Positions 27,563 through 47,036 of a DNA stretch of 49,737 nt are shown here, one piece after another. A program made the translations under genes and the position numbers. This DNA is from an uncultured Oscillospiraceae bacterium. GTDB lineage: Bacteria > Bacillota > Clostridia > Oscillospirales > Oscillospiraceae. Position 1 is the first letter of the stretch; each line of letters opens with the position of its first letter. The DNA is taken from the NCBI GenBank assembly GCA_944387825.1, contig CALXGL010000009.1:1-49737 (forward strand). Reading direction: 5' to 3'. The notes beneath the pieces were generated by a model that was given only the letters and a program-made list of their open reading frames with translations, had not been told where the DNA came from and did no database searches.

Positions 27563-28185
27563 CGGGGAAAGCACAGGAAAAGAAGACAGCGAGGGAACAG
27601 ACGCATCGCTGGTTTAACATCGTATATTCCATAGTTATACCTCTGGTCAAGCTGGTATTTCGCATTCGCTGCAGGGGCAGGGAGAATATTCCGCAGGGCC
27701 CTGCGGTGGTCTGTGCCAACCACTCCAATTTGCTTGACCCCCTTATTGCGGCGGGCGCCTTCGGAAAGAGGCACTTCATGCACTTTATCGCGAAGAGGGA
27801 GCTGCAAAACGTCCCGATTATAGGCAAGGTCATAGAATTGTGCGGCGTCTGCTTCGTAAACCGCGGAACCGGGGATATTACGGCTATGCGCAGCATGATG
27901 CGTTACCTTAAAAATGGGGAAAAAGTCTTTATATTCCCTGAAGGCACACGCGCGGAGGAGGACAACATGGTGGATGCTAAGACGGGAGCGGTCCGCCTCG
28001 CCTCCAAGCTGGATGTGCCCATAGTCCCGGTGTATATCCCTCGCCGCAAGCACGTTTTCGGGCGGATAGACGTGCTGATAGGCAGGCCGTATCGCGTAAA
28101 GGGCAGCAACCATGATGAGTATGAGTCCCTGTCGGACGGCATCATGGAGCATATCTATGAGTTGAGGGACGGTAAAAGCGCATGA
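27559..28185 (+). CDS. plsC: 1-acyl-sn-glycerol-3-phosphate acyltransferase
   Basis: NHSNLLDP (HxxxxD) and FPEGTR motifs. ATGA overlap with cmk. Confidence 0.85.
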   Translation: MTGKAQEKKTAREQTHRWFNIVYSIVIPLVKLVFRIRCRGRENIPQGPAVVCANHSNLLDPLIAAGAFGKRHFMHFIAKRELQNVPIIGKVIELCGVCFVNRGTGDITAMRSMMRYLKNGEKVFIFPEGTRAEEDNMVDAKTGAVRLASKLDVPIVPVYIPRRKHVFGRIDVLIGRPYRVKGSNHDEYESLSDGIMEHIYELRDGKSA

Positions 28186-30407
28186 GTACAATAACGGTGG
28201 CCGGGAGCGCCGGCTTCTGCTTCGGCGTGTCGCGCAGCGTGGAAATGGCGGAAGAGCAGCTGAAGGACGGCCCCTGCCTGAGCTTCGGCCCGCTTATTCA
28301 CAATGAGAACGTAGTGGAGCATCTCTCCGAGCTGGGCCTGAGGGTGATTTCTTCGCCGGATGAGGTGCGTTCGGGCGACCGCGTCATTATCCGTTCTCAT
28401 GGCGTGCCGTCGGCAGTGGAGGACGCTCTGCGTCAGGCCGGGGCGGAAATAGTAGACGCGACCTGCCCTAATGTCGCGCGCATACACAGGCTCGCGGCGG
28501 CAGCGAGCGCCGCCGGGCGCAGGGTTATAGTAATCGGCAGCTCCGGGCACCCGGAGGTGCAGGCCATCTGCGGCCGCTGTACCGGCGCATGCGTGGCCGG
28601 GAACGCACAGGAACTGGAAAAAATGCTCGAGACAAGCCCTGAAATGCGCTCGGAAGCCGTAACGGTTGTCGTACAAACCACTCAGACTGAGAAAAATCTG
28701 AAAGAGTGTGAAAAATTAATAAAAAAACTGTGTACAAACGCGGAAATATTTGATACAATATGTTCTGCTACGTCCACGAGGCAAAGTGAAGCAATCGAGC
28801 TGGCCTCAAAATGTGACGCAATGGTAGTCATCGGCGGCAGGGACAGTGCGAACAGCCTGCATCTCGCGCAGTTGTGCGCTGAGCGCTGCGCCAACACTCA
28901 GTTCGTTGAAAACGCCGAGACGCTGGATACAACAGCGTTAATTGGCGCAAACGCCATAGGCGTAACGGCGGGGGCGAGCGCTCCCTCGTGGATAATCAAG
29001 GAGGTACTGGAAAAGATGAGCGACGAGATCCTGATTCAAGAGAACCCGGCAGAAGAGACCGCGGCAGAGCCCGCAGTCGAAGCGGCAGAGCCCGTAACCG
29101 AGACGGTGGAAGAAACCGCCGCCCCTGTTGAAGAAGCCGCAAACGCGGTCGAGGAGACCGCAGCCGCAGAGAAGCCCGCGGCAGAGAAGAGCTTCGACGA
29201 AATGCTGGAGGATTCTCTTAAAACTATATATAATGGCGACAGGGTATCCGGCACTGTAGTGGCTATTACGCCCACTGAGGTCAGCGTGGACCTCGGCACG
29301 AAGTATTCCGCTTTCATTCCCACGACGGAGTTCACCAACGACGGCGCCGTCAACGTTGAGGACGCCGTTAAGGTTGGCGACAGCGTTGAGGCTATCGTAG
29401 TCCGCGTGAACGACATCGAGGGCACCGCCCAGCTCAGCAAGAAGCGTCTCGACGCGGCCAAGAGCTGGCAGGTCATCGAGCAGGCCCAGGCCGACGGCGA
29501 GATAGTCGAAGGCGTGGTAACCGAGGAGAACAAGGGCGGCGTCGTTGTCAACGTCGGCGGCGTGCGCGTGTTCGTACCGGCCAGCCAGAGCGGCCTGCCG
29601 AAGGACACTCCCATGACCCAGCTCGTTAAGACCACCGTCCGCCTGAAGATTACCGAGGTCAACCGCGGCCGCCGCCGCGTTGTAGGCTCCATCCGCGCCG
29701 TGCAGCAGAAGGAGCGCCGCGAGAAGGCCGACGCCGTCTGGAATGAGATAGAGGTTGGCAAGACCTATCACGGCACTGTGAAGAGCCTGACCAGCTATGG
29801 CGCTTTCGTCGACATCGGCGGTATTGACGGCATGGTTCACGTCAGCGAGCTGAGCTGGAACCGCATCAAGAACCCGGCCGAGGTAGTTTCCGTGGGCCAG
29901 GAGATTGACGTCTATGTTATCGGCTTCGACCGTGAGCAGCGCCGCATCTCCCTCGGCTTCAAGAAGGCCGAGGACAACCCCTGGACCAAGTTCGTCAACA
30001 CCTGCTCCGTCGGCGACGTGGTCAAGGTCAAGATTGTCAAGCTTATGCCCTTCGGCGCTTTCGCCGAGGTTATGCCCGGCGTTGACGGCCTTATCCACAT
30101 CAGCCAGATTGCCAACCGCCGTATCGGCAAGCCCGACGAGGTCCTGACCGTCGGCGACATCGTCGATGCGAAGATTACCGCTATCGACACTGAGAAGCAG
30201 AAGATAAGCCTCTCCATCCGCGCCCTGAGCGAGCCCGAACCGGCTCAGCGCCGTGAGCGCCGCGAGCGCAGCGAGCGTCCTGAGCGCGAGCATCGCGAGC
30301 GCCGTCCCATCGTCCCTGAAGAGGACGCCCTGGTTTATGAGGTCAGCGAGACCGGCGAAGCCAAGGGCAACATTCCCGACTTCGTTGACGACGAGACCGA
30401 GGAGTAA
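28182..30407 (+). CDS. ispH: Bifunctional 4-hydroxy-3-methylbut-2-enyl diphosphate reductase (IspH/LytB) / 30S ribosomal protein S1 fusion
   Basis: The N-terminal ~280 aa is LytB-like (GFCFGVSRSV, HNENVV, ATCPNV, DTICSATSTRQ). An Ala/Glu-rich linker follows, then four S1 repeats (e.g. GTVKSLTSYGAFVDIGGIDGMVHVSELS). Confidence 0.9.
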   Translation: MSTITVAGSAGFCFGVSRSVEMAEEQLKDGPCLSFGPLIHNENVVEHLSELGLRVISSPDEVRSGDRVIIRSHGVPSAVEDALRQAGAEIVDATCPNVARIHRLAAAASAAGRRVIVIGSSGHPEVQAICGRCTGACVAGNAQELEKMLETSPEMRSEAVTVVVQTTQTEKNLKECEKLIKKLCTNAEIFDTICSATSTRQSEAIELASKCDAMVVIGGRDSANSLHLAQLCAERCANTQFVENAETLDTTALIGANAIGVTAGASAPSWIIKEVLEKMSDEILIQENPAEETAAEPAVEAAEPVTETVEETAAPVEEAANAVEETAAAEKPAAEKSFDEMLEDSLKTIYNGDRVSGTVVAITPTEVSVDLGTKYSAFIPTTEFTNDGAVNVEDAVKVGDSVEAIVVRVNDIEGTAQLSKKRLDAAKSWQVIEQAQADGEIVEGVVTEENKGGVVVNVGGVRVFVPASQSGLPKDTPMTQLVKTTVRLKITEVNRGRRRVVGSIRAVQQKERREKADAVWNEIEVGKTYHGTVKSLTSYGAFVDIGGIDGMVHVSELSWNRIKNPAEVVSVGQEIDVYVIGFDREQRRISLGFKKAEDNPWTKFVNTCSVGDVVKVKIVKLMPFGAFAEVMPGVDGLIHISQIANRRIGKPDEVLTVGDIVDAKITAIDTEKQKISLSIRALSEPEPAQRRERRERSERPEREHRERRPIVPEEDALVYEVSETGEAKGNIPDFVDDETEE

Positions 30408-33850: not shown

Positions 33851-33861
33851 GGCCCCCTGTG

Positions 33862-33906
33862 AGCCGCGGCATCCTTGGAAGCAAGGATGCCGCGGCTTGC
33901 TTTTTT
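33862..33906 (+). terminator. Strong rho-independent terminator (left boundary of the hydrolase cassette)
   Basis: AGCCGCGGCATCCTTG-gaag-CAAGGATGCCGCGGCT, a 16-bp perfect stem, followed by TGCTTTTTT. Confidence 0.8.
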
Positions 33907-34064
33907 GTACTAAACGTCAAATATAAACCATAAAAATGGCACACAAAGAAAAATAATACAGCAAAATTGCCGTATTATTCGACATCATTGTTACGTGTTT
34001 TTATACTTAATTTACATTATACTAAAAACAAGAAATTAATATTTGCCCGGAGGAGGAGAGAGAA

Positions 34065-35057
34065 GTGGCAAGACGTGGTGCGGATTTAAAGACTCTGCTT
34101 GATATCCCTATGTGGGAAAAAATACAAGACGAGCTGGCGAAACTTACCGGCACCGCGATTATTACGGTAGACTATAAGGGTAATCCCATAACCAAGCACA
34201 GCGAGCGCACGGAGTTCTGCAGCGTTATACGCGAAAACCCGGTCTCAAGAAAACGCTGCTACCGCTGCGATGCCCTTGCCGGACTGGAGGCCGTGCGTTT
34301 GGGACGTCCCTACGTCTATCTCTGCCACTGCGGAATAGTAGACGTGGCCGTGCCTGTGATTGTCGGAGACAAATATCTGGGCGCCGTCATGTTCGGCGAA
34401 GTACGCCTGCCCAAAAACGCCGAGGCCGAGGAGAAGGTTGAGCGCCTCGTCAGCGAGATAAGCTCTTTCCAGGCCGAGGGCGACAGCATCCGCAGCGACC
34501 TCCTCGAGAAATATGAGCGCCTGCCCGAAATGGAGTACAGCCGCATAGTGCAGGTGGCCGATACCATCAAATCCATAGTCAATTATATCATCGACCGCGC
34601 GGTCAGCCGTGAAAACGAAATGCTTACATACGAGTATCTGCTCCGTGGGATATCGGAGCGCAATACCGTGCGCCCTCATGAGATTCAGGAGCACGCCGTA
34701 GCGGACGAACATCAGGAGGAGAGCAGCCTCCCGCAGAGCAGCGCGGTTTATCCTGCCGTTGAATACGTCAGGAGCCACATGCATGAAATGGTCAGGATGG
34801 TGGATATGGCGCACCTCTGCCATCTCAGCCCCAGCTACTTTTCACGTATTTTCCACCGCGATGTCGGCGAGAATTTTATCAACTGGATGAACCGCCAGAA
34901 GGTCGAGGAGGCCAAGCTCCGCCTGCGCGGCGGCAACGACACCGTAAATCAGATAGCGCTGGATCTGGGGTACATGGATTCCAGCTATTTTATCAATGTC
35001 TTCAGGCGGTTTGAAGGCATAACTCCGCTCGTATACAGGCAGTATAACGGGAAATGA
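34065..35057 (+). CDS. AraC-family transcriptional regulator with an N-terminal PocR-type sensory domain
   Basis: The PocR-like N-terminus is WEKIQDELAKLTGTAIITVDYKGNPIT...FCSVIR...CYRCDA...YLCHCGIVDVAVPVIVGDKYLGAVMFG. The C-terminal AraC HTH is LSPSYFSRIFHRDVGENF...IALDLGYMDSSYFINVFRRFEGITP. GTG start with RBS GGAGGAGGAG. Confidence 0.85.
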   Translation: MARRGADLKTLLDIPMWEKIQDELAKLTGTAIITVDYKGNPITKHSERTEFCSVIRENPVSRKRCYRCDALAGLEAVRLGRPYVYLCHCGIVDVAVPVIVGDKYLGAVMFGEVRLPKNAEAEEKVERLVSEISSFQAEGDSIRSDLLEKYERLPEMEYSRIVQVADTIKSIVNYIIDRAVSRENEMLTYEYLLRGISERNTVRPHEIQEHAVADEHQEESSLPQSSAVYPAVEYVRSHMHEMVRMVDMAHLCHLSPSYFSRIFHRDVGENFINWMNRQKVEEAKLRLRGGNDTVNQIALDLGYMDSSYFINVFRRFEGITPLVYRQYNGK

Positions 35058-35097
35058 CCTCTGACAGAAAAATTGTCGTCATGCACAATTATCAAGT

Positions 35098-35123
35098 ACT
35101 TGCTTTGAGCAAGTTATTTTTTT
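35098..35123 (+). terminator. Terminator-like hairpin after the regulator gene
   Basis: ACTTGCT-ttg-AGCAAGT followed by TATTTTTTT. Confidence 0.55.
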
Positions 35124-35139
35124 ATCTATTTCGCACAAC

Positions 35140-35185
35140 AAATATGACATATAAATCAAATATGACGTATGCATATGTCATATTT
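35140..35185 (+). promoter_or_regulatory. Three copies of an 11-bp motif (two direct, one inverted): candidate AraC/PocR operator
   Basis: AAATATGACAT (35140-35150), AAATATGACGT (35158-35168) and the inverted ATGTCATATTT (35175-35185). Copies 2 and 3 form a 28-bp near-palindrome centred on TGCA. Confidence 0.5.
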
Positions 35186-35207
35186 GAGGACTATTTTGAA
35201 TATTTAC

Positions 35208-35258
35208 TTTGCAGCAGCGCTTTTATATCCTAAATGTAGAAAGCGCAGCTGCTGCAAA
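35208..35258 (+). other. Long leader hairpin between the operator repeats and the RBS of the first hydrolase gene
   Basis: TTTGCAGCAGCGCTTT ... AAAGCGCAGCTGCTGCAAA, a 16 bp stem with a 3-nt bulge, followed by an A-run rather than a T-run. Confidence 0.5.
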
Positions 35259-35283
35259 AAAACTATAAAAGGAAGGGATGAAA

Positions 35284-37494
35284 ATGAAAAAGTTCTTCAA
35301 GTCGCATCTGTTTACGGCTGTTATGTGCCTGTGCCTTGTGGTTATGCTGATAACCGGACTTGTCGTTTCCGGGACGCTGTCGGACCACGGGGACTACATT
35401 GTGCGAGAAACGAGAATACAGAACGACGGCTACACTCTGACCGGTACGCTGTATGTACCCAAGGCTGCGCTTGAGAAGGACGACGATATTACATCGTACA
35501 AGAATGGAAACAACACCAATAAAGTGCCCGCAATCATCACGCATGGCGGAGGAAGCGCGAACAGATACTTCCAGCAGAATCACATTGTCGAACTCGTGAA
35601 GAGGGGCTTCGCCGTATTTGCGATAGACGCCTACACTCACGGGGAATCCGACAATTACACCGAGGGCTGGGGCATCTATTCACATGTGCATGACGCCGTC
35701 GAATACGTCCACAGCCTGAACTTCGTAGACGACGCCCAGGTGGGCTACGTGGGACATTCGCAGGGCGGCAGCGCCACAATGATGGCGCTTAAAGTTTATG
35801 CGGGCTATTATACGCTGGAAGACGAGCTCTTCAATATGCTGCACGACGAACTGGGAGTTGAGATCACGCGTGAGCAGGTCGAAGCCCAGGACCCCGACGC
35901 GGTTGCAGCCGGGCTCGACGAGCATGACCGCGGATACTACGAGGGACGCAAGATTGAGATAACGGAGAGCTATAACGACCTTCGCATAAGCTTTGGCGTA
36001 ATGGAAGGCATGGCCACCGGCACCGCGCCTCCGATAACCTCCGGAGAGAGGAACAATGTTGACCCGATGGTGGTCGAGGTAGGCGGAGTGCCCGTAATGA
36101 GGGATATACAGGCCAATATATGCACCTCCATAGCGTCAACCGACGAGTCCACCGGAGTAAACGCGCTTGGAGGACTGGGGATTTCCGGCACGGACGAACT
36201 GCCCGAGGCCGAAATAACCCGCACCTTCTATGGCACGGGCGAGGAACCGGTTGCGCTAGACACGCTCTATTCTGTGAATATGTCGTCCACGGAGGAGCGG
36301 CTTGCGAGCACGGTGATAGGAACATTCGATGAAAACAGCTGGCAGGATGCCGCCGTGCAGGAGGCCGCGGCAAACAAGACGCTGCGCCTGCTCGTCATGT
36401 ATCCCGGCTGGCACAACACCAACCACTATTCTGAGACCGACATAAGCACGGTGGCCAACTTCATGTCCATCGCAGCCGGATATAATAACGGCTATATCTC
36501 CGAAACCGGCGGCGAAAATGCCGCGGCGTTCGGCGACACCGGCACGTGGAAGACCACGGTCGCGTTCAATGCCATCGCTTTCATTGCGGCCATAATCTTC
36601 TGCGTATCGCTGCTCGCGGTGCTGCTCAGGACCAGATCCTTTGAGTGCGCCTGCAATGAGCTTCCGGCCCCGCAGGCCAGCGCAAAATCGCCGCTTACCT
36701 GGGTGTTTACTCTGGTAGTCGTCATCCTGCCGGTGCTTTTAATAACGCCGCTGATGAACAACAGCCTGATGCCCTCGTCCTGGTTCGCAAAGTTCGACCG
36801 CATAAATCCCATAGCCTTCTGGTCGATGAGCTGCGCCGTAATACTGCTTGTGCTCATAATCATCAAGTGGAATGTGCTGGACAAGAAGAATACTGCGCTG
36901 AAGTTCAGAGATTATTACGGCCTGCGCTGCAGCGTGAAATCCGTGCTGCTTACGCTGCTCGCGGTGTTCCTCGTAAGCGTGGCCCTGACGGACGTCATCA
37001 ATCTCTATTACAAGGCGTTTAACGGCGCGAACTTCATGATAGCGCTGCCGCTGCTGAATATACCCATCCAGCTCACGCCTATATCTGCCGACAGGTACAT
37101 AGACTGGGTGTGCTATTTCCTGTATTTCCTGCCGTACTGGATAGTGGGCGGCATGCTTGTAAATTCGGCCCGCATGAAGGATATGCCCGGCTGGCTGAAC
37201 ACAATAATTCTAGCTCTGCTCAACTTCCTGCCGATTGCCGTATTCATTTACGTACAGTACTTCGGCTATCTGGGCAACGGAGGCACAGCGCCCGTCCTCG
37301 GATTGAACTGGGCCACGATAATTCAGATGCAGGGCCTTGTCCTGATAGTTCCCATAGCGGTTATTGTCTCCAGGGTGATGTATAAGCGCACGGGCTCCTG
37401 CCTGACCGGCGCGATACTTAACTCCATGATGTTCTCTCTGCCGTTCATGTGCAACGTGATTGCGTATACCGTCAGCAGTATGCCCAGTCAATAA
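35284..37494 (+). CDS. Membrane-anchored alpha/beta serine hydrolase fused to a C-terminal eight-helix membrane module (paralogue A)
   Basis: N-terminal anchor, THGGGS, and nucleophile elbow GHSQGG (Ser codon 35758-35760). There is a conserved GWHNT His and about 300 aa of C-terminal hydrophobic helices. RBS AGGAAGGG favours the ATG at 35284 over 35278. Confidence 0.8.
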   Translation: MKKFFKSHLFTAVMCLCLVVMLITGLVVSGTLSDHGDYIVRETRIQNDGYTLTGTLYVPKAALEKDDDITSYKNGNNTNKVPAIITHGGGSANRYFQQNHIVELVKRGFAVFAIDAYTHGESDNYTEGWGIYSHVHDAVEYVHSLNFVDDAQVGYVGHSQGGSATMMALKVYAGYYTLEDELFNMLHDELGVEITREQVEAQDPDAVAAGLDEHDRGYYEGRKIEITESYNDLRISFGVMEGMATGTAPPITSGERNNVDPMVVEVGGVPVMRDIQANICTSIASTDESTGVNALGGLGISGTDELPEAEITRTFYGTGEEPVALDTLYSVNMSSTEERLASTVIGTFDENSWQDAAVQEAAANKTLRLLVMYPGWHNTNHYSETDISTVANFMSIAAGYNNGYISETGGENAAAFGDTGTWKTTVAFNAIAFIAAIIFCVSLLAVLLRTRSFECACNELPAPQASAKSPLTWVFTLVVVILPVLLITPLMNNSLMPSSWFAKFDRINPIAFWSMSCAVILLVLIIIKWNVLDKKNTALKFRDYYGLRCSVKSVLLTLLAVFLVSVALTDVINLYYKAFNGANFMIALPLLNIPIQLTPISADRYIDWVCYFLYFLPYWIVGGMLVNSARMKDMPGWLNTIILALLNFLPIAVFIYVQYFGYLGNGGTAPVLGLNWATIIQMQGLVLIVPIAVIVSRVMYKRTGSCLTGAILNSMMFSLPFMCNVIAYTVSSMPSQ

Positions 37495-37525
37495 GCATAA
37501 GGTCAAAAAGAAAGGGTGAAAAAGT

Positions 37526-39634
37526 GTGAAAAAAGAAAAACTGTTCACATTGAAAACGCTGCGGGGCTGCATGAGGCTGTTCGCGCTGATGCTGTGCCTG
37601 GTGCTCGTTTTCAGCTTCGTCGCCCGTCTGATTTCAACGGACGGCGGCAAAGTAAAGATCAGCCGTGTGTCTATCGATTCGAGGGGCGCAATCATAGACG
37701 CGGACCTCTATTATCCCGTCGGAACCGACGACACGGATAAGCTGCCTGCGGTAATCGTAGCGCATGGCGGCGGCGTGGAAAAGGGCGTCGTCCGCGGAAC
37801 GGCCGAGGAGCTGGCCAGAAGGGGCTTCGTTGTCCTGAATCCCAATGCCTATGGCGTCTCCATGAGCGAGCAGCCTGTGTATGACGAAGGCGGCCAGGGC
37901 ATAGACGGCTTCAACAACCAGCTTACGCCCAGCGGCATCTACGACTGCCTGACCTTCCTCAGGACGCTCAACTTCGTCGATCAGACCCGAATAGGCCTGA
38001 CCGGTCACTCCATGGGCTCCAGGCGTACGGCCTACGCCAGCATCATGGACTGCGGCCACTACACTTATAACGACCTCATGATAAATGTTCTGTATGATAC
38101 CTTCGGACAGACCTTTACAGAGGAAGAAATCACTATGGACGCCGACGCTCTGGCCGCCGAAAGGCTCAATGAAGACCAGCTGAAGCACTATAACGAACTC
38201 AAGGAAGAGACAAGGACCTATTACGATACCAGGGTCAAAGCCCTTTGCCTTATGGGCAGCGACGCCAACCTTATCGGCATACCCGAAACCGTGACGGTCG
38301 GCGGACATGAAGTCGTCCGCAACTGCCAGGTCAATATAGGCATAGTAGACGGCCAGTGGGACTATAGCTACAGGGACTACCCCGAGCGCGACACCACGAA
38401 GGAGGCCTGGCACACCGAGGACATTCAGGCCGAGACCTGGTACTCCATTGACGACGTCAACGGCACCAGCACGCTTATTGGCAGCATCAGCGAAGTCCAG
38501 GCTCAGGATAACGAGGAGTTCCAGTCGGCTCTCTACAACCGCACCCTCAGGAGCTTCCAGCTCAACAAGGAGACCCATTCCAAGAACTTCTTCTCCAACG
38601 CCACTACCTCCGACGTGGTAAAATTCTTTGAGCAGACTCTTGGATACAATAACGGCGAGCTTGGCGCAGCCGACGCCAACCCGGTATCCGCCGACAGCAT
38701 GATTTTCATGGTCCGTGAGGTCTTCAACTTCCTCGCGATGCTGGCCATGGTCGGCATGCTTATGCCTCTGGCAGGCATGCTGCTCAACTGCAAGTTCTTC
38801 AAGCCCTGCACCGCTGCCGTGAGCGTCAAGGTCTCGGCTCCGGTGAACAAAAAGAAATACTGGCTGTTTGCGCTGCTGGGCATTGTCATCGAGTTCATAG
38901 CCATACATCTTGCGAACGGAGTATTCGTGCCCGGCCTGCCTGCCACAAGCTTCCTGCCGTTCTTCCCGAGCTGGTGGCTGACCTTCATATTCATTGCGAT
39001 TCTCGCAGTTGGCTCCGCCGTCATGCTTGTCCTGTTCAAGGTCACCGACAAGCAGAACTGCTCCTTCTCCGCGCTGAACGTAAAGATGAAGGTCGTAAAC
39101 GTGCTCAAGACGGTACTGCTTTCAGCGATACTCCTGGCCGCCGCCTATCTGCTGCTGACTCTGGTAATCGACCTCTTCAACGAGGACTTCCGTCTCTGGA
39201 TGGCTGTGTTCACCGAGATGAAGGTGGAGTACTGGGGCTACGTCTGGAGGTATGCTCTCTGCATGCTGCCGTGCTTCCTGCTCATAGGCGCGAGCACAAA
39301 CTACACCATCCGTACGGACATGGCTCAGTGGAAGGATACGCTTATCACCGTCGTGGTGAACTCTCTCGGCGTATATCTCTGCTGCCTCGTCAACTACCTC
39401 ATGCTCGTCGGCGCCGACAATCTCTGGAGCTCGTTCATCTCCACCTACGGCATGCTGGTGATTGTGCCCATTACGGTCTACATTACCAGGAAAATGTACC
39501 TGCTCACCAACAGCATCTGGCTCGGCGCTCTTACGAACGCCTTCCTCGTCAGCTGGACTATCTGCTCGGCTATGGGCCTCAACTGCAACATATATAACGC
39601 GCAGACCTGGTTCAGCAACTTCTTCAGCCTGTAA
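37526..39634 (+). CDS. Membrane-anchored alpha/beta serine hydrolase fused to a C-terminal eight-helix membrane module (paralogue B, diverged)
   Basis: N-terminal anchor, AHGGGV, GHSMGS (Ser codon 38009-38011), ETHSK His and a C-terminal polytopic module. GTG start. Confidence 0.8.
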   Translation: MKKEKLFTLKTLRGCMRLFALMLCLVLVFSFVARLISTDGGKVKISRVSIDSRGAIIDADLYYPVGTDDTDKLPAVIVAHGGGVEKGVVRGTAEELARRGFVVLNPNAYGVSMSEQPVYDEGGQGIDGFNNQLTPSGIYDCLTFLRTLNFVDQTRIGLTGHSMGSRRTAYASIMDCGHYTYNDLMINVLYDTFGQTFTEEEITMDADALAAERLNEDQLKHYNELKEETRTYYDTRVKALCLMGSDANLIGIPETVTVGGHEVVRNCQVNIGIVDGQWDYSYRDYPERDTTKEAWHTEDIQAETWYSIDDVNGTSTLIGSISEVQAQDNEEFQSALYNRTLRSFQLNKETHSKNFFSNATTSDVVKFFEQTLGYNNGELGAADANPVSADSMIFMVREVFNFLAMLAMVGMLMPLAGMLLNCKFFKPCTAAVSVKVSAPVNKKKYWLFALLGIVIEFIAIHLANGVFVPGLPATSFLPFFPSWWLTFIFIAILAVGSAVMLVLFKVTDKQNCSFSALNVKMKVVNVLKTVLLSAILLAAAYLLLTLVIDLFNEDFRLWMAVFTEMKVEYWGYVWRYALCMLPCFLLIGASTNYTIRTDMAQWKDTLITVVVNSLGVYLCCLVNYLMLVGADNLWSSFISTYGMLVIVPITVYITRKMYLLTNSIWLGALTNAFLVSWTICSAMGLNCNIYNAQTWFSNFFSL

Positions 39635-39657
39635 TAAGAGGAAAACCGGACTCATTG

Positions 39658-39683
39658 CAGGAGCCGCCAAGCGGCGGCTCCTG
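39658..39683 (+). other. GC-rich intercistronic hairpin without a U-tract
   Basis: CAGGAGCCGCC-aagc-GGCGGCTCCTG, an 11-bp perfect stem 24 nt after the paralogue B stop. Confidence 0.5.
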
Positions 39684-39750
39684 TGTCATAAGCAAAACGG
39701 GCAGCAAACATAAAGCAAATATTTACAGCCGCGCTGAGGAGGGAACGTAA

Positions 39751-41943
39751 ATGAAAAGCTGGCTTAAAAGCAATCCTTTTGTATCGATTTTGTGTATATG
39801 CCTTGTGGTGATGTTTGTAACGGGCCTTGTCGTGTCAAATACCTTGACAGACAATGGGAATTACCTTGTAAAAGAGACCAGAATTCAGAAAGACGGCTAT
39901 ACGCTCGCGGGCACGCTGTTTATACCCAAAGCGGCGCTTGAAAAAGACGGAGACGTCACAGCGGCCAAAAATGGAAACAATGTCAACAAAGTTCCCGCCG
40001 TCATAACTCTCGGCGGCGGCACGGCGAACCGGTATTTCCAGCAGAACCATGTGGTTGAGCTGGTCAAGCGCGGATTCGTTGTGTTCGCCATAGACGCGTA
40101 CAATCATGGCGAGTCCGATGATTTCTCGGGCTGGAAAGTATATTCGCACATCCATGACGCGCTCGAATACGTCCACAGCCTCAACTATGTGGACGACGCG
40201 CAGGTCGGCTTCTTCGGGCACTCGCAGGGCGGCAGCGCAACTATGCAGGCGCTTAAAAACTATGCCGGGTACTATACGCTGGAGGACGAAATCCTGAACA
40301 TGCTGCACGACGAGCTGGGAGTCGAGGTCACGCGTGAACAGGTGGAAGCTCAGGACCCGGACGCTGTGGCTCAGGTGCTCGATGAGCACGACCTGGGCTA
40401 TTACGAGGCGAGGAAACAGGAAATAATAGACAGCTACAACGACATGCGCGTCAGCTTCGGCGTCATGGAGGGCATGGCAAACGGCTCCGCGCCTCCCATA
40501 GGCTCCGGTGAGACGAACGACGTAACCCCGACGGTCGTAGAGGTGGCCGGGGTGCCCGTGTTCAGGGACATCCAGGCTAATATAGCCACCTCCATGTCGC
40601 TCACCGACGAAACCGTAGGCGTGAACGCGATTGGATTTATGGGCCTGGACGGCGCGGACGAGCTGCCCTCAGCCGAGTCTATCCGAGCTCTGTACGGCAC
40701 CGGCGAAGACGCCGTTGAGCTTGGCATGCTTTACTCCGTGAATATGTCTTCCACGGAAGAGCAGCTTTTGAGCACGGCGCTGGGCGAATTCAACGCCGAT
40801 ACTTGGGCAGGCGAGGAAGCCGCGCAGGCCGCGGCCGACAAGAGCCTGAGGCTCATGGTAATGTACCGCGGCTGGCACAACACAAGCCACTACAGCCAGC
40901 TGGATATAAGCACCGTGGCGAGCTTCATGACTCTGTCCACCGGCTTCAACAACGGCTACGTCGCTGAGACCGGCGGCTCCGGAGCCATAGGCTTTGATGA
41001 TGTGGGCACGTGGAAGGTTACAACGGCCGGAAACGCGGTTGCGTTTTTCGCGCTGATAATCTTTGCGCTCAGCTTCCTGTGCGCCGTTATAAAGACGCCG
41101 ACCTTCGCCGCCGCGGACAGGGCTGTGGTCGAGGCTCCGGCGAGCAGGAAGTCTCCGATGGCATGGATATCCATGATATTCTTCGTCGTACTGCCGGTTG
41201 TGCTTATGCCGGTGATAATGAACAACAGCCCGATTAAGTCGTCCTGGATTACGAGGTTCGAAGAGATTAACGCCATAGTCTTCTGGGCTCTCTGCTGCGC
41301 GGTAATCCTGCTTGCGCTGATAATACTCAAGTGGAATCTTTACGACAAAAAGCGCGTGAGCATAAGCTTCAGGGACTTCTATGGCCTTAACTGCAATGTC
41401 AAATCGGTGCTGTTTATGCTGCTCGCCGTGTTTTTTACCGCGGTGACGGTCATTGTCGTGATAAACATCTACTCGCAGACCTTCAGCAGCGCCAACTTCA
41501 TGATAGCGATGCCGTATCTGAACGTCCCCATGATGTTCACGCCGGTGTCGGCCGGCAGGTATCTGGACTGGATTTGCCTCTTTATAACATTTATTCCGTA
41601 CTGGATTATCGGAGGCATGCTTGTCTGCTCGGCCAGAATGAAAGACATGCCAAACTGGCTGAACACCATAATCCTCACAATAATCAACTTTATACCCGTC
41701 GCCATATTCGTGTATGTGCAGCATTTCGGGTATAACGGCAACGGCGGAACACAACCTGTGCTCGGAATAAACTGGGGCGTGCTTATCAACATGTCCAGTC
41801 TGGTTCTCGTCATACCGGTGTCCGTGGTTATGTCGAGGGTGATATATAAGCGCACCGGCTCCAGCCTGCCCGGGGCAATATTCAACGCGATGCTCTTTAC
41901 GCTTCCGTACCTGTGCACCTGCCATTCGTGCGCGACGTTTTGA
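39751..41943 (+). CDS. Membrane-anchored alpha/beta serine hydrolase fused to a C-terminal eight-helix membrane module (paralogue C, close to A)
   Basis: N-terminal anchor, TLGGGT, GHSQGG (Ser codon 40222-40224), GWHNT and a C-terminal polytopic module. RBS GAGGAGGG lies 7 nt upstream. Confidence 0.8.
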   Translation: MKSWLKSNPFVSILCICLVVMFVTGLVVSNTLTDNGNYLVKETRIQKDGYTLAGTLFIPKAALEKDGDVTAAKNGNNVNKVPAVITLGGGTANRYFQQNHVVELVKRGFVVFAIDAYNHGESDDFSGWKVYSHIHDALEYVHSLNYVDDAQVGFFGHSQGGSATMQALKNYAGYYTLEDEILNMLHDELGVEVTREQVEAQDPDAVAQVLDEHDLGYYEARKQEIIDSYNDMRVSFGVMEGMANGSAPPIGSGETNDVTPTVVEVAGVPVFRDIQANIATSMSLTDETVGVNAIGFMGLDGADELPSAESIRALYGTGEDAVELGMLYSVNMSSTEEQLLSTALGEFNADTWAGEEAAQAAADKSLRLMVMYRGWHNTSHYSQLDISTVASFMTLSTGFNNGYVAETGGSGAIGFDDVGTWKVTTAGNAVAFFALIIFALSFLCAVIKTPTFAAADRAVVEAPASRKSPMAWISMIFFVVLPVVLMPVIMNNSPIKSSWITRFEEINAIVFWALCCAVILLALIILKWNLYDKKRVSISFRDFYGLNCNVKSVLFMLLAVFFTAVTVIVVINIYSQTFSSANFMIAMPYLNVPMMFTPVSAGRYLDWICLFITFIPYWIIGGMLVCSARMKDMPNWLNTIILTIINFIPVAIFVYVQHFGYNGNGGTQPVLGINWGVLINMSSLVLVIPVSVVMSRVIYKRTGSSLPGAIFNAMLFTLPYLCTCHSCATF

Positions 41944-42015
41944 CCGGTTTTGAGCAGGCAGAATGCGGCGTTGCAGAAACATGCCGGATGAATCTATAAA
42001 GGAACGGAGAAAAAT

Positions 42016-43254
42016 ATGATACTAGATACCTCCAAGTATACTGGATTATGCGAATGCGGAAGGACACATGAGCTGCGCACCAAGCTTGTCGTGTGTGAAG
42101 CCGGGGCGCTGCAGAAATTCGACAAGTATATGCAGGATTGCGGCCTTTCAGGCTTCAGTACCATCATATATGACACAAATACGTACAATTTGCCAGGAGT
42201 AACCCGTCCGGCTGCTGGGCAGGAAATAGTCCTCGATGCGGCGGGCCTGCACAGCGAGAAGGGGCTCATTGAAAACATGATGAAGGACTTCGTCAGAAAG
42301 CCCGACTACGTAGTGGCTGTCGGCGGAGGCACGATAATGGACTTCGGACGGTACAGCGCGTACCAGCTGGGGATACCATTCGTTGCGGTGCCTACAATCG
42401 TGAGTTCTGATGGTTTTACGGCAAATATATGCTCGATTATAATCGACGGCCAGAAGAAATCGATTCCCATGCTCGCGCCGGACGCAGTTATATGCGATTT
42501 GAATGTCGTATCCTCGGCGCCTGAATTCCTTACTGTGGCCGGCGTGCAGGACATTCTGGCAAAGTACATATCCATAGCCGACTGGAAAATAGCCAGTCTG
42601 GTGACAGGCGAATACTTTTGCCCGCGCGTATGCGCAATGGCTCAGGAGGCGCTTGACATCATGGCCGGCTGCGCGGAGGAACTCAGGAGGGGCGAAAAGC
42701 CGGATCATGAGCGGCTCGCCTACGCGCAGATGCTGTCCGGCCTGACCATGCAGATACTCTCCAATTCCCGCGCGGCTTCCGGCGCGGAGCATCTGATTGC
42801 GCACCTTGTTGAAATGAAGCCCAGAGGCTTTGAAAATGCCCACGGACTTCACGGCGAGTGCGTAGGTGTGGGCACGGTAATATGCGCGGAGGAATATCAC
42901 CGCCTGGCCATGAACGAGACTATTGAAACGAAGCCGTTTGAGCCGCTTGACCGGCAGTGGGTGGAATATGTGTTCGGCAGCATGACGGATGGAATCATGA
43001 AGGAAAACGAGAACGACGTACTCATGACCGTTGACACAGAAAAACTCAGGAACTGCTGGCCGGAAATCCGCAGGATAATATCTGAAATACCTTCTGCCGA
43101 TGAAATCAGGACGCTTTTCAAAGAGATTGGAGCAAAATACACCTTGTCTGATCTCGGCATAGACGAGAGCCTGGGGCGGGAGGTCCTGAAAATATCCGCG
43201 GCGATACGCAACCGCATGACCCTGTGCCGGCTTGAACGGCTGATTGTGGAGTGA
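42016..43254 (+). CDS. Iron-containing-ADH-superfamily enzyme, sn-glycerol-1-phosphate dehydrogenase (AraM/EgsA)-like
   Basis: [24 protein letters not shown] and SGAEHLIAH...HGECVGVG match the G1PDH/glycerol dehydrogenase-type nucleotide and metal-binding pattern. 412 aa. Confidence 0.65.
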
Positions 43255-43259
43255 TGCAG

Positions 43260-44741
43260 ATGAAATATATAATGACTTTGGACCAGGGCACAACCAGCAG
43301 CCGCTGCATACTTTTTGACCTCAACGGGTCGGCGGCGGCCATGGCGCAGCGCGAATTTACTCAGTATTTTCCGCAGCCCGGCTGGGTTGAACATGACCCT
43401 GAGGAAATTTGGGACACCACGCTGGCGGTCTCCAGAGAAGCCATGTTCAACGCCGGCGCACGGCCGGAGGACATAGTGGCCATTGGCATTACCAACCAGC
43501 GCGAAACCACTGTTTTGTGGGAAAAGACATCCGGCCGGCCCGTGGCCAACGCTATTGTCTGGCAGTGCAGGCGTACGTCGAAAATCATTGACAAACTTGT
43601 ACAGGACGGCGCGGGGGATATGATACGCGAGAAAACCGGACTGGTGCCGGACGCGTATTTCTCCGCTTCAAAGATAAAGTGGCTGCTGGACACCGTCCCG
43701 GGCGCCAGGAAAATGGCGGATAATGGCGAGCTGCTGTTCGGTACGATTGACAGCTGGCTCATATGGAAGCTGACCGGCGGAAAGGCGCATGTAACCGACT
43801 ATACGAACGCGAGCCGGACCATGCTGTTCAACATCGAAGAGCTGCGCTGGGATACCGACCTGCTCAAGCTTCTGGACATACCCGAGTGCATACTTCCCGA
43901 GGTGAAGCCGTCCTCCTGCGTATACGGATACAGCGTAAGAGAGCTCTACGGCGGAGAAATTCCGATAGCCGGCGCGGCGGGCGACCAGCAGAGCGCCCTG
44001 TTCGGACAGTGCTGCTTCCTTCCGGGCGAGATGAAGAACACATACGGCACGGGCTGCTTCCTGCTTATGAACACGGGCAGTGAGCGCGTCCGCAGCAAAA
44101 ACGGGCTTGTCACAAGCATTGCGGTGGGATATCAGGACCATGTGGAGTATGCGCTGGAGGGCAGCATCTTCACTGCAGGCTCCGCCGTCCAATGGCTGAG
44201 GGATGAGCTGAGCATAATACCGACGGCATCCGACAGTGAAAGGATAGCCTGCTCGGTGGCCGACACAGCCGGCGCGTATATCGTTCCCGCGTTCACCGGG
44301 CTGGGCGCGCCGTACTGGAAGCAGGACGCGCGCGGAGTAATAACCGGCGTAACACGCGGCTTTTCACGCGCACACCTTGTGAGGGCTACGCTGGAATCCC
44401 TGGCGTATCAGACGCACGACATTGTGCGCGCGATGGAGCGGGACGCGAAAATGGATATAACCGCCCTGCGTGTGGACGGCGGAGCAAGCGCGAACAACTT
44501 CCTCATGCAATTCCAGGCGGATATCCTAAACGCCGACGTTATACGGCCCGAGTATATAGAGACTACCGCTCTAGGCGCGGCATATTTGGCCGGCCTGGCC
44601 ATGGGAGTGTGGAGCGGTACGGCTGAAATACGGAGCCTGCGTGCATCCGACCAGGTGTTCAAAAGCGCAATGGCTGCAGAAAAGCGCGAAGAGCTTTTGA
44701 AGGGCTGGCAGAAGGCCGTGCGCTGCGCGCTCGTGGATTGA
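43260..44741 (+). CDS. glpK: Glycerol kinase
   Basis: [43 protein letters not shown], and [13 protein letters not shown]. Confidence 0.92.
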
Positions 44742-44759
44742 GAAGAAATCAAAGGTATA

Positions 44760-44792
44760 CAAGGACGCCTGCTCTTGCGGCAGGCGTCCTTG
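44760..44792 (+). terminator. Terminator-like hairpin after glpK (weak U-tract)
   Basis: CAAGGACGCCTGC-tcttgcg-GCAGGCGTCCTTG, a 13-bp perfect stem. Confidence 0.45.
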
Positions 44793-44923
44793 CTGCGTGA
44801 AGACGCGGTTTGTGCGGAAAATTTTCAGTTGCACTTTTCACTTCGGTATTATATAATATGATGAATTGACGTGTGCACGGAAAACCGTGCCGCACATGTA
44901 TTAAATCACAAGGTGATTTGTCC

Positions 44924-45811
44924 ATGGGATTTAGCGAATACTTTTCTAACTCCATTAATTATATACTGACGATGAGCTTTTCGGATATCATAGATATCCT
45001 CATTGTAGCGATACTCATATATGTCTGCATAAAGCTCATCCGCCGTACGAACGCCATACGCCTGGCGAGGGGCATAGTAATCGTTCTTTTGGCGCTGGTT
45101 GTATCCGACCTGCTCAATCTGCGGATGATAAACTCGCTTTTCAGACGTATAGTTGAGCTTGGCCTTATTGCCATCATTATTATTTTCCAGCCGGAGATAC
45201 GCAGGCTTCTGGAACGTATGGGCAGCGGAAAGTTCTCTTACTTTTTCGGAGTGCCGGGCGTGCCGGCAACCACGGAGGCCGCCATTAACCAGACTGTCCT
45301 CGCGTGCACGAGAATGGCGGAGAGCCGGACGGGCGCGCTCATAGTTTTTGAACGTACAAGCAGCCTGAACGACGCAATGGTGACAGGAACCATCGTCAAC
45401 GCCGACGTTTCCAGCGAGCTTCTCAGGAACATATTCTTTGTCAACTCGCCTCTGCACGACGGCGCGGTTATTATGCGCGACGGACGCATTGCCGCGGCCG
45501 GCTGCATGCTGCCGCTTTCAAAGAACGCCTCTCTCAGCTCCGACCTCGGCATGCGGCACAGGGCCGGAATCGGCGTCAGCGAGCAGTCTGACGCCGTGGT
45601 AGCGATTGTGAGCGAGGAGACCGGCTCCATATCCGTAGCCATTGACGGTATGCTCAAGCGGCATCTTACCGCGGAGGCTTTTTCAAAAATCCTGCATAAC
45701 GAGCTCATCCCGGATTCCGGTACTCAGGTGAAAAAGCGCGGCATCCCCGGCCTTATCGATTCCGTCAAGGGATTTATGGTGAAGAAGAATGACGAAAAAG
45801 AGAGCGAATAA
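44924..45811 (+). CDS. cdaA: Diadenylate cyclase CdaA (membrane-anchored DAC domain)
   Basis: Three N-terminal TM helices and a DAC domain: GALIVFER..., SPLHDGAVIM, GMRHRAGIGVSEQSDAVVAIVSEETGSIS. I trimmed the start to the ATG at 44924. Confidence 0.9.
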   Translation: MGFSEYFSNSINYILTMSFSDIIDILIVAILIYVCIKLIRRTNAIRLARGIVIVLLALVVSDLLNLRMINSLFRRIVELGLIAIIIIFQPEIRRLLERMGSGKFSYFFGVPGVPATTEAAINQTVLACTRMAESRTGALIVFERTSSLNDAMVTGTIVNADVSSELLRNIFFVNSPLHDGAVIMRDGRIAAAGCMLPLSKNASLSSDLGMRHRAGIGVSEQSDAVVAIVSEETGSISVAIDGMLKRHLTAEAFSKILHNELIPDSGTQVKKRGIPGLIDSVKGFMVKKNDEKESE

Positions 45812-47036
45812 GCTGTTTGACAGCAATATATTCTGGTTGATTATCTCTCTGCTTGCGGCGCTTGTCATATGGGTTTATATGACCGGCACGCAGGAAGAGG
45901 TTATAAAGCGCACGCTCAATGATGTCGAGGTCGTTTTTGAAGGTCAGGAACGGCTGCAGGCTCAGCGCGGCTTCGTAATCACAGACGCAAGCGCCCAGAC
46001 CGTTGACGTGGTTATCGAGGGCAGGCGGCTGGACGTCAGCAGGCTTTCAAGCGAGGACGTAAAGGCGGTAATAAACGTCGCCGGAATAACCAGCACCAGC
46101 AACTACACTCAGGACTACACCCTTTCCTACCCGGACAACGTGGACGCCGGCAATATCACTTTCGTGTCCGGGACGCCCAAGAATATAAGCTTCCAGGTCA
46201 CGCTGATGGATGAACGGCAGTTCCCGGTGGAGGCCGCTTTCGTCGGCAGCGTGGCGGAGGACCACATGCTCGGCGATATAGAGTTTGAGCCCAAGACCAT
46301 AACCGTCCGCGGACCGCAGACCGTGCTGGAAACCATAGACCATATTTATGCGGAGATTTCTCTCACGGACCTGGACGAAACACGCACTGTCGAGTCCGGC
46401 TTCACGCTCATAGGCAAAGACGGCGCAGAGGTGCCGGGCGAGGGCCTTGAGTTTGACTTCAATACGATTTCCGTCACAATACCTGTCAGCGTTGTAAAGA
46501 CGGTGCCTATATATGTGACGCTCATCGAAGGGGCGGGAGCGACGAGGAACAATACGAAGATAGAGCTCGACGTGGACGAGATAACCATTGCCGGCGACGC
46601 CTCCGAGGTTGACAGCATCAACCGCATCGAGGTTGGCCCCGTAGACCTGACGAGCTTCGACCTCACATATGAGGACGATTTGGACGTCGTTTTGTCAAAC
46701 GAGGTGGAGAACGTCTCTGGCATAGAATCCGTTCACGTGGCCGTGCAGGTTACCGGGCTGGCCATAAAGGAATTTACGGTTACAAATCTCAGCTATGACG
46801 GCCTGCCGGACGGATATGCGGCCGAACTTGTGACGCAGTCGCTGACGGTTCGCATACGCGCGCCGCAGGAGGTGCTCGACCAGCTCAACTCCACCAATAT
46901 TCGCGCGGTGGCCGACCTATCGAATACGACGGCTACAGGCACGATGGACACCTCGAGAGTCAGGGTTGTGGTAGACGGCGCGCTGCAGGCCGGAGCGGTT
47001 GGAACATACAGACTGACGTTTAACATAAGCAGATAG
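45789..47036 (+). CDS. cdaR: CdaA regulatory protein CdaR (YbbR-domain repeats)
   Basis: N-terminal anchor and repeated YbbR-like beta modules. It overlaps the cdaA 3' end, as is typical. Confidence 0.85.
   Translation: MTKKRANKLFDSNIFWLIISLLAALVIWVYMTGTQEEVIKRTLNDVEVVFEGQERLQAQRGFVITDASAQTVDVVIEGRRLDVSRLSSEDVKAVINVAGITSTSNYTQDYTLSYPDNVDAGNITFVSGTPKNISFQVTLMDERQFPVEAAFVGSVAEDHMLGDIEFEPKTITVRGPQTVLETIDHIYAEISLTDLDETRTVESGFTLIGKDGAEVPGEGLEFDFNTISVTIPVSVVKTVPIYVTLIEGAGATRNNTKIELDVDEITIAGDASEVDSINRIEVGPVDLTSFDLTYEDDLDVVLSNEVENVSGIESVHVAVQVTGLAIKEFTVTNLSYDGLPDGYAAELVTQSLTVRIRAPQEVLDQLNSTNIRAVADLSNTTATGTMDTSRVRVVVDGALQAGAVGTYRLTFNISR

Follow-up and report, generated by a model that had tools for sequence, protein, structure and literature searches.

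The stretch of DNA analysed here (the window) comprises 49,737 nucleotides of contig CALXGL010000009.1 from an uncultured Oscillospiraceae bacterium of the chicken gut, and carries three adjacent genes, here called A, B and C, whose products join an α/β-hydrolase ectodomain to a membrane domain of eight transmembrane (TM) helices. These proteins are probably membrane-integral serine carboxylesterases that free glycerol from surface esters for the glycerol kinase GlpK of the same operon, a reading to which we give a probability of roughly 60%. In the proposed mechanism, an uncleaved N-in signal-anchor helix would hold an acidic α/β-hydrolase domain on the outer face of the membrane, with a Ser-Asp-His triad, an H-G-G-G oxyanion loop, a conserved four-helix lid and a variable second insertion, and the polypeptide would end in a family-specific eight-TM bundle. 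At the cell surface, the ectodomains would cleave glycerol esters of carboxylic acids, such as acylglycerols or phenolic or acetyl glycerol esters present in the bird gut, and the freed glycerol would enter the cell and be phosphorylated by GlpK. The copies would differ mainly in the second insertion and the membrane domain, thereby widening the substrate range, and members of the family found in arabinose operons would release L-arabinose from extracellular esters instead. The three genes are laid out as follows; residue numbers of the triad and the domains refer to gene A unless another protein is named.

35278..37494, plus strand: gene A, 738 amino acids (aa) from 35278, probably 736 aa from 35284. 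First TM helix (TM1) 35308-35379; ectodomain 35383-36540, with Ser161 at 35758-35760, lid at 35806-35985, Asp289 at 36142-36144, second insertion at 36145-36381 and His379 at 36412-36414; 8-TM domain 36544-37455.
37526..39634, plus strand: gene B, 702 aa, GTG start, member of a common subfamily. TM1 37577-37636; ectodomain 37640-38698, with Ser162 at 38009-38011, Asp279 at 38360-38362 and His351 at 38576-38578; 8-TM domain 38702-39568.
39751..41943, plus strand: gene C, 730 aa, paralogue of A. TM1 39775-39846; ectodomain 39850-41004, with Ser158 at 40222-40224, Asp286 at 40606-40608 and His376 at 40876-40878; 8-TM domain 41008-41919.

An earlier sequence-only reading had described these genes as encoding collinear serine-hydrolase ectodomains, and alignments bear out three intact plus-strand genes that are collinear over their full length, separated by 31 nt (A-B) and 116 nt (B-C), with ectodomains spanning residues 36-421 in A, 39-391 in B and 34-418 in C. 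The long runs reported as common to A and C (ETRIQ, YSVNMSSTEE and SARMKDMP) were located in the order described, and the oxyanion-like motifs lie at residue 88 in A (THGGGS), 79 in B (AHGGGV) and 86 in C (TLGGGT). The nucleophile codons are exactly those proposed (TCG at 35758-35760 in A, TCC at 38009-38011 in B and TCG at 40222-40224 in C), and the conserved His lies in GWHNT at 377 (A) and 374 (C) and in ETHSK at 349 (B), which gives Ser-to-His distances of 218, 189 and 218 residues for A, B and C. For gene A, two ATG codons in the same frame, 35278 and 35284, lie 6 nt from each other; the second, yielding 736 aa, is most likely the start, because the ribosome-binding site GGAAGGG abuts 35278, the 99%-identical database protein is also 736 aa long, and the protein collection contains no 738-aa form.

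The array is not an assembly artefact: separate metagenome assemblies contain the locus free of indels, it occurs in several bird or chicken-gut runs, and one independent 14.1-kb contig, assembled from another run, covers 33900-44318 and differs by substitutions alone. The observation itself stood. So did the serine-hydrolase assignment, the predicted triad and the presence of a lid; what calls for revision is the duplication history and the weight given to the insert between Ser and His. The earlier reading made no mention of the C-terminal membrane domain or of the glycerol-operon context; this domain of about 300 residues and that context are the more unusual features of the array.

At the sequence level, the hydrolase domain is recognised by Pfam in all three proteins. 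Protein A matches Abhydrolase_6 (35.6 bits; gathering cut-off 26.3) and Abhydrolase_1 (26.8 bits; 25.8), C matches the same two models at 27.5 and 28.0 bits, respectively, and B matches DLH at 26.0 bits (cut-off 21). All of these matches span only the N-terminal half of the α/β-hydrolase fold, approximately residues 70-175, up to the nucleophile. Sequence and profile comparison with the PDB returned a MHETase-like enzyme (9pjb, 3e-10), PET46 (8b4u) and Est1E (2wtm), at E values from 3e-10 to 1.5e-7, as well as YcjY, and no solved relatives of the C-terminal hydrolase half were found by sequence with single sequences, a family profile or a short-type member as queries.

To place the remaining elements we used an AlphaFold2 model of A built with 22 homologues (predicted local distance difference test, pLDDT, 86.7; predicted template-modelling score, pTM, 0.87). 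In this model, TM1 (11-34) is followed by a β-hairpin (40-61), strand β3 (83-89) with the GGG loop at 90-92, strand β5 (150-160), Ser161 and helix C (162-175), so that G-H-S-x-G sits at a nucleophile elbow, as had been proposed. A four-helix lid (~177-236), β6 (239-243), a hairpin (264-275) and β7 (280-286) precede Asp289; an insertion of short helices and a hairpin (290-368) then leads to β8 (369-375), His379 and helix F. Eight TM helices occupy residues 423-726, interrupted by a short extracellular hairpin at 586-599. The missing acid of the earlier reading is thus placed after β7, at D289 in A, D279 in B and D286 in C, and the invariant His after β8; Ser161, Asp289 and His379 form the predicted triad, in the canonical order β5-Ser, β7-Asp, β8-His.

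A Foldseek search of the PDB with this model returned only α/β-hydrolases, among them PET46, TTL lipase, Lactobacillus feruloyl and chlorogenic esterases and CE7 acetyl esterases (E ~1e-5; ~390 aligned columns; target-normalised TM-score 0.5-0.6). In a set of 128 representatives, each 560 aa or longer, Ser161 is conserved in 99%, His379 and the oxyanion-loop Gly91 in 100% each and Asp289 in 79%; in a curated alignment of 22 sequences the acid is Asp in 19, Glu in two and an Asn flanked by Glu in one. HMMER pairs the GGG loop after β3 with the HGF stretch of Est1E, and the motif reads HGGG in A and B and LGGG in C, where L replaces H. The Abhydrolase_3 profile of the hormone-sensitive-lipase (GGGX) family was unmatched at E up to 1, and membership of that family is not indicated. 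Fold and conserved residues support the assignment of A, B and C as serine α/β-hydrolases, as far as sequence and model can tell, and the modelled fold neighbours (lipase, feruloyl and acetyl esterases) would fit both glycerol and arabinose as the esterified alcohol.

The stretch between Ser and His had been regarded as a single, very long insert suggestive of a lid. A lid is indeed present, but the model resolves the stretch into two separate elements, the lid at 177-236 and a second insertion at 290-368. The lid occupies the canonical cap position after helix C and, at 82% identity between A and C and 40% between A and B, is the best-conserved segment between the copies, for which reason it appears to be a fixed functional module. 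The second insertion (79 residues, between the acid and β8) is the most diverged segment of the ectodomain, with 54% identity between A and C, and the membrane domain is 56% identical in the same pair; to judge from these alignments, the insertion and the membrane domain are where A and C diverged. Ser-to-His distance is bimodal among 101 aligned superfamily representatives, with a short type (100-140 residues, in proteins of ~580-660 aa) and a long type (180-220 residues, ~700-740 aa). The extra length is accordingly real, but it is a feature of a subfamily. A Ser-to-His spacing of ~190-220 residues is ordinary for capped α/β-hydrolases, and since ~200 residues are common among these enzymes, the spacing in the array is not extraordinary.

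The C-terminal eight-helix membrane domain makes up about 40% of each protein. Its predicted cytoplasmic loops hold 15 Lys and Arg in 63 residues and the outside loops two in 70, and the ectodomain is strongly acidic (59 Asp and Glu versus 21 Lys and Arg). The term ectodomain is right, since the positive-inside rule puts the hydrolase domain outside, with the N-terminus in the cytoplasm; the N-terminal helix is predicted to be an uncleaved N-in signal anchor. The membrane domains of A, B and C have no Pfam match at E up to 10, and those of ten distant members have none at E up to 0.01, apart from a sub-threshold Mem_trans match in the C-terminal region of P0244 (19.6 bits; cut-off 25.7) with no significant stretch. 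No PDB sequence match was obtained with single sequences, the family profile or a short-type member. When the membrane domain was modelled separately (pLDDT 83.8, pTM 0.84), Foldseek against the PDB gave a best E of 0.25, with GPCR and TMEM16 entries at TM-scores of ~0.1-0.28, and thus no fold neighbour. No internal 4+4 repeat was detected (hhalign probability 0.9%). Across the 128 representatives, W424, F455, K554, Y613, N629, R699, Y702, T705 and G711 are conserved, mostly at the cytoplasmic face. A stand-alone membrane domain was not convincingly found; the short proteins P0196 and P0198 resemble truncated gene calls, and P0198 begins inside the hydrolase C-terminus. The 'YKRTGS...GA..N' ending prompted consideration of a CPBP/Rce1 protease, which was rejected because the domain has no Pfam match (E up to 10), no conserved Glu or His in its TM helices and no PDB fold match. 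Membership of the MIP/aquaglyceroporin (GlpF) family is likewise not indicated, with no Pfam MIP match and no fold match.

The genes that flank the array in the window are the following.

34065..35057, plus strand: PocR-sensor/AraC-type regulator (Pfam PocR 3.6e-45, HTH_18 1.6e-19), directly upstream of the array.
35141..35184, no strand assigned: three copies of AATATGACRTAT, two direct and one inverted, in the promoter region of gene A; candidate operator.
42016..43254, plus strand: Fe-ADH_2 dehydrogenase, AraM/glycerol-1-phosphate-dehydrogenase-like (Pfam Fe-ADH_2 1e-26).
43251..44741, plus strand: glycerol kinase GlpK (TIGR01311, 717 bits; cut-off 590), last gene of the apparent operon.

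A, B, C, the Fe-ADH_2 gene and glpK appear to form one operon behind the PocR/AraC regulator. The glpK gene overlaps the stop of the Fe-ADH_2 gene by 4 nt, and from A to glpK no terminator-like site was found in the intergenic gaps, the plus-strand matches being weak (5-7 stem pairs) and intragenic. The regulator scores 181 bits with the NCBIfam model TransRegPocR, below the equivalog cut-off, and a PocR-type regulator also precedes family genes in loci L041, L045, L104 and L129. Within the window, AATATGACRTAT has three matches, all at 35141-35184 (0.12 expected by chance) and ~100 nt upstream of A, and its copies form a palindrome with 14-bp arms at 35156-35187; these repeats may be the binding site of the adjacent regulator. 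No exact match to AATATGACRTAT was found across all 129 loci, so that a role as operator throughout the family is not shown.

The Fe-ADH_2 protein of the window reaches 171.5 bits with the NCBIfam glycerol-1-phosphate dehydrogenase model (G1PDH; cut-off 413) and is hence related but not equivalog. Genes of this kind adjoin family genes in L037, L045, L046, L053, L127, L128 and L129. The enzyme might be the glycerol-phosphate-oxidising step in these anaerobes, because no GlpD/GlpO-type gene adjoins glpK in the loci that have Fe-ADH_2. As a separate observation, the AraM-like gene recurs beside family genes in glycerol and arabinose operons alike, with recurrent copies at L037 10241-11485, L046 12306-13580, L127 9259-10503 and L129 8272-8688 (171-186 bits against the cut-off of 413).

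Family genes recur in glycerol or L-arabinose operons. The context set comprises 80 non-redundant family loci, many of them on short contigs, and neighbouring genes were called with a codon-usage-scored caller, which in a check of five loci reproduced most but not all of the collection's own calls (the GldA gene of L041 was missed). The 128 immediate neighbours include 13 FGGY kinases, five AraC-type regulators, four AraR-type GntR+PBP regulators, three AraA, three DAO (GlpD/O-type) and, more rarely, Fe-ADH (3), Dak (2) and PocR (2); among 95 second neighbours are DAO (5), AraA (4), MFS (4) and FGGY (3). An FGGY kinase is directly adjacent in 13 of the 80 loci and within two genes in 16, and a transporter gene is usually not adjacent to family genes.

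With FAM denoting a family gene, glycerol operons take the forms GlpP-GlpK-FAM-FeADH_2 (L037, L127), GlpO-GlpK-FAM (L120), GlpP-GlpA-like-oxidoreductase-GlpK-FAM (L075), FAM-DhaK-TIM (L084) and PocR-GldA-DhaK followed by five FAM (L041). Arabinose operons read AraR-FAM-AraA-AraB-like-FeADH_2-AraD (L046), AraR-FAM-FAM-AraA-AraB-AraD (L065) and AraC-FAM-FAM-AraB-AraA (L039). The members in L075, L120, L084, L041, L046, L065 and L039 are only 22-55% identical to B and come from gut, peat and other habitats. The FGGY kinases beside AraA/AraD in two of the arabinose operons (L046 10721-12292 and L039 10188-11777) matched no NCBIfam ribulokinase model, their sole match being a weak one to XylB (85-111 bits; cut-off 380), and they may represent an unmodelled ribulokinase lineage.

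The three copies were previously taken as a triplication with one older, diverged copy, a history that the family does not bear out: A and C (64% identical) form a pair of paralogues within a single rare clade, while B belongs to a separate and commoner subfamily (29% identical to A by MAFFT, 26-27% by BLASTP). The A/C type is rare, with 23 clusters found at 90% identity, and the B type is common, with at least 405 clusters, mostly from gut Oscillospiraceae such as Candidatus Scatomorpha and Allofournierella. Among 185,579 species genomes only four full-length relatives were found, one in an Oscillospiraceae metagenome-assembled genome (MAG), one in a MAG bearing the label Bacteroides thetaiotaomicron and two, 23-25% identical, in spirochaetes. 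The homologue in the MAG labelled Bacteroides (L004, JAWZDV010000075.1) is a full-length A-type protein of 45% identity on a 200-kb contig; all other close relatives are from Clostridia, which suggests a binning error or horizontal transfer. The superfamily as a whole comprises at least 291 clusters at 50% identity, as counted in an exhaustive profile search with a limit of E 1e-30; with a limit of 1e-10 the search gives 853 representatives. Members are present in Oscillospiraceae, other Clostridia and spirochaetes and in metagenomes from gut, peat and sediment.

Neighbour-joining places C as the sister group of A and its orthologues P0002 and P0003, which dates the A/C duplication to before the species concerned diverged; where residues are conserved, A and C agree at only 56% of third codon positions. 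Elsewhere, an orthologue of B (82% identical) stands alone in GlpP-GlpK-B-FeADH_2 (L127) and an orthologue of A (74% identical) alone in PocR-A-FeADH_2 (L129). The arrangement PocR-A-B-C-FeADH_2-GlpK thus looks like a merger of A-type and B-type loci plus a duplication rather than a simple triplication. Tandem arrays of two to five mixed long and short paralogues occur in L039, L041, L045, L050, L059, L065 and L096. Two of these, L041 (8001-18124) and L045 (2627-11126), hold four or five paralogues, long (~705-726 aa) and short (~603-623 aa), behind a PocR regulator.

Comparison with known systems places the ectodomain close to soluble esterases. Its best sequence and fold matches are bacterial feruloyl, cinnamoyl and chlorogenic esterases with a lid (Est1E 2wtm, L. 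buchneri feruloyl esterase 7z2x, 7xri, 8skm) and the related PET46 (8b4u) and MHETase-like 9pjb, and it has in common with this group a β-hairpin start, an HG oxyanion loop, a G-H-S-x-G elbow and a lid after helix C. The enzymes of that group are soluble proteins of ~250-280 aa, and their sequence similarity to the array proteins stops at the nucleophile. Est1E/LJ0536-type feruloyl esterases have a Ser-to-His spacing of ~120 residues; relative to them, the array proteins possess a larger four-helix lid, the hairpin 264-275, the 79-residue insertion, the N-terminal anchor and the 8-TM domain. TTL of Thermoanaerobacter thermohydrosulfuricus (7q4h, 7q4j) and monoglyceride lipases (3pe6 and others) match the fold at E ~1e-5 with TM-scores to the target of up to 0.59, and one matched TTL structure holds a monoacylglycerol intermediate, which fits the proposed glycerol-ester chemistry; these enzymes differ in being soluble, without a membrane domain, and are only 12-20% identical. 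Dienelactone hydrolase (PF01738) is matched above its cut-off by B only, over profile positions 7-111 of 217. In true dienelactone hydrolases the nucleophile is Cys, and the half-profile match and the Ser nucleophile set the array proteins apart from them. The ectodomain is thus a new, elaborated member of a very well-known fold, and the novelty lies in its fusion to an unrecognised membrane fold and in the operon logic. A search of full-text literature, which was not exhaustive, found no membrane esterase of this architecture and none in glycerol or arabinose operons.

Several other readings account for parts of the same evidence. The 8-TM domain could be a new channel or facilitator that takes up the freed polyol or pentose in place of GlpF or AraE, fed by the ectodomain, an arrangement we consider possible though unlikely. 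Glycerol operons of the type glpF-glpK-glpD/O carry the MIP channel GlpF, and arabinose operons AraE or AraNPQ; family genes hold this slot, beside glpK and glpD/O or araA/B/D, and FAM is the sole membrane protein in the operons of L046, L039, L037, L127 and L120. MIP is absent from the 25 commonest families of 223 scanned neighbours, no convincing case of the TM domain apart from the hydrolase turned up, and the conserved polar residues N629, D635, R699, Y702 and T705 cluster at the cytoplasmic face. The likeness to GlpF and AraE, however, is one of operon position alone, as neither is related to the array membrane domain in sequence or fold; the domain is unlike any Pfam transporter family or PDB fold (best E 0.25) and lacks a transporter-like internal repeat (hhalign probability 0.9%). 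Glycerol also crosses membranes unaided, and some loci do have a transporter nearby, since MFS proteins are found among 2 of the 128 immediate and 4 of the 95 second neighbours. The broader claim that the family consists of 'harvest-and-import' machines, each an esterase joined to an unseen 8-helix fold conducting glycerol or L-arabinose to an FGGY kinase in many anaerobes, is for us equally tentative. More doubtful still is the view that A, B and C are nothing more than esterases, lipases or peptidases with a membrane anchor, that their glycerol link is incidental and that the 8-TM domain serves only as an elaborate anchor. It would suit the roughly three quarters of loci that have no glycerol or arabinose neighbour, the unrelated neighbours at L043 and at the A-type L001 and L002, and the weak matches to S9, S15 and S33 peptidase models; yet FGGY is the top neighbour family (13 of 80 adjacent, 16 of 80 within two genes), and the members in the FGGY loci, which come from gut, peat and other habitats, are no more than 22-37% identical. 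Given the number of FGGY genes per genome, chance adjacency would be expected at well under 1%. One helix would moreover suffice as an anchor, whereas every full-length member keeps the 8-TM domain.

By analogy, the proteins might serve acyl transfer or remodelling in the envelope, the TM domain delivering an acyl donor and the ectodomain adding acyl groups to, or removing them from, a glycerol- or arabinose-containing polymer. OatA and PatA/B follow such a logic, with a polytopic membrane domain and an extracytoplasmic esterase-fold domain; OatA combines acyltransferase-3 with SGNH, and LtaS five TM helices with a sulfatase fold. The array proteins resemble OatA and LtaS in joining a multi-helix membrane module to an outward-facing hydrolase-fold domain, here of the Ser-His-Asp kind, and the glycerol-1-phosphate-dehydrogenase-like neighbour could hint at glycerol-1-phosphate chemistry, which is linked to lipoteichoic acid. 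The folds of both modules are nevertheless unrelated, the TM domain is unlike acyltransferase-3 or MBOAT in Pfam and has no fold similarity to its counterparts, the neighbours are catabolic enzymes and sugar or polyol regulators rather than cell-wall genes, and arrays of as many as five paralogues are what one expects of nutrient-acquisition loci; we hold an envelope function to be highly improbable. That the ectodomains are non-catalytic sensor or binding modules is scarcely credible: nothing specific speaks for it beyond the fact that only half of the fold is recognisable by sequence, and conservation of Ser, His, the acid and the Gly of the oxyanion loop extends across the whole superfamily.

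The glycerol-esterase reading remains the one we prefer, and a number of observations weigh against it. Sequence similarity to characterised esterases is limited to the N-terminal half of the fold (residues ~44-175), and, with the weak Pfam matches to S9, S15 and S33 peptidase models, peptidase chemistry is still formally conceivable beside the esterase chemistry inferred here. About 60 of the 80 loci have no glycerol or arabinose gene within two genes, and since such neighbours are lacking in about three quarters of loci, the link is not universal; the A-type singletons L001 and L002 instead have alpha-amylase genes nearby. A sizeable subset occurs in L-arabinose rather than glycerol operons (L039, L046, L057, L065), so that the released alcohol would differ between members and glycerol, the likely product here, is not proven. 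Member names offer little guidance, all being 'hypothetical protein' except for one B-type homologue that NCBI names 'dienelactone hydrolase family protein'. A run labelled RNA covers A, B and C at low depth, and this RNA evidence consists of assembled contigs of a run that possibly contains DNA.

If the glycerol-esterase reading is true, a widespread and wholly unannotated protein family would gain a role in the surface release of glycerol or arabinose from esters, with dietary fats and feruloylated or acetylated plant material as the ester sources and with the release wired into a catabolic operon. An esterase step would thereby be added to the harvest of lipid- and fibre-bound carbon by anaerobes of poultry and other animal guts. 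The membrane domain would be new for Pfam and for structural work, and the proteins would offer biotechnology membrane-displayed esterases akin to PET- and ferulate-active enzymes. The AraM-like Fe-ADH_2 partner may in addition explain glycerol phosphate oxidation in strict anaerobes without GlpD beside glpK.

The surroundings of the operon supply some further observations. A strong intrinsic terminator with a 19-bp stem (33859-33900) follows a class-V aminotransferase gene and marks the upstream boundary of the regulator/esterase block. The block of regulator, esterase and glycerol genes (34001-46000) has a G+C content of 0.51-0.56, compared with 0.56-0.66 upstream of it; the drop could reflect acquisition of the block or merely the composition of membrane-protein genes. 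Further upstream, a single open reading frame (28182-30407) joins IspH/LytB to four S1 RNA-binding domains, with CarD, IspD, IspF and class-V aminotransferase genes on its upstream side and CdaA, YbbR, YicC and Gmk downstream. Because this frame sits in a housekeeping stretch, the window is chromosomal.

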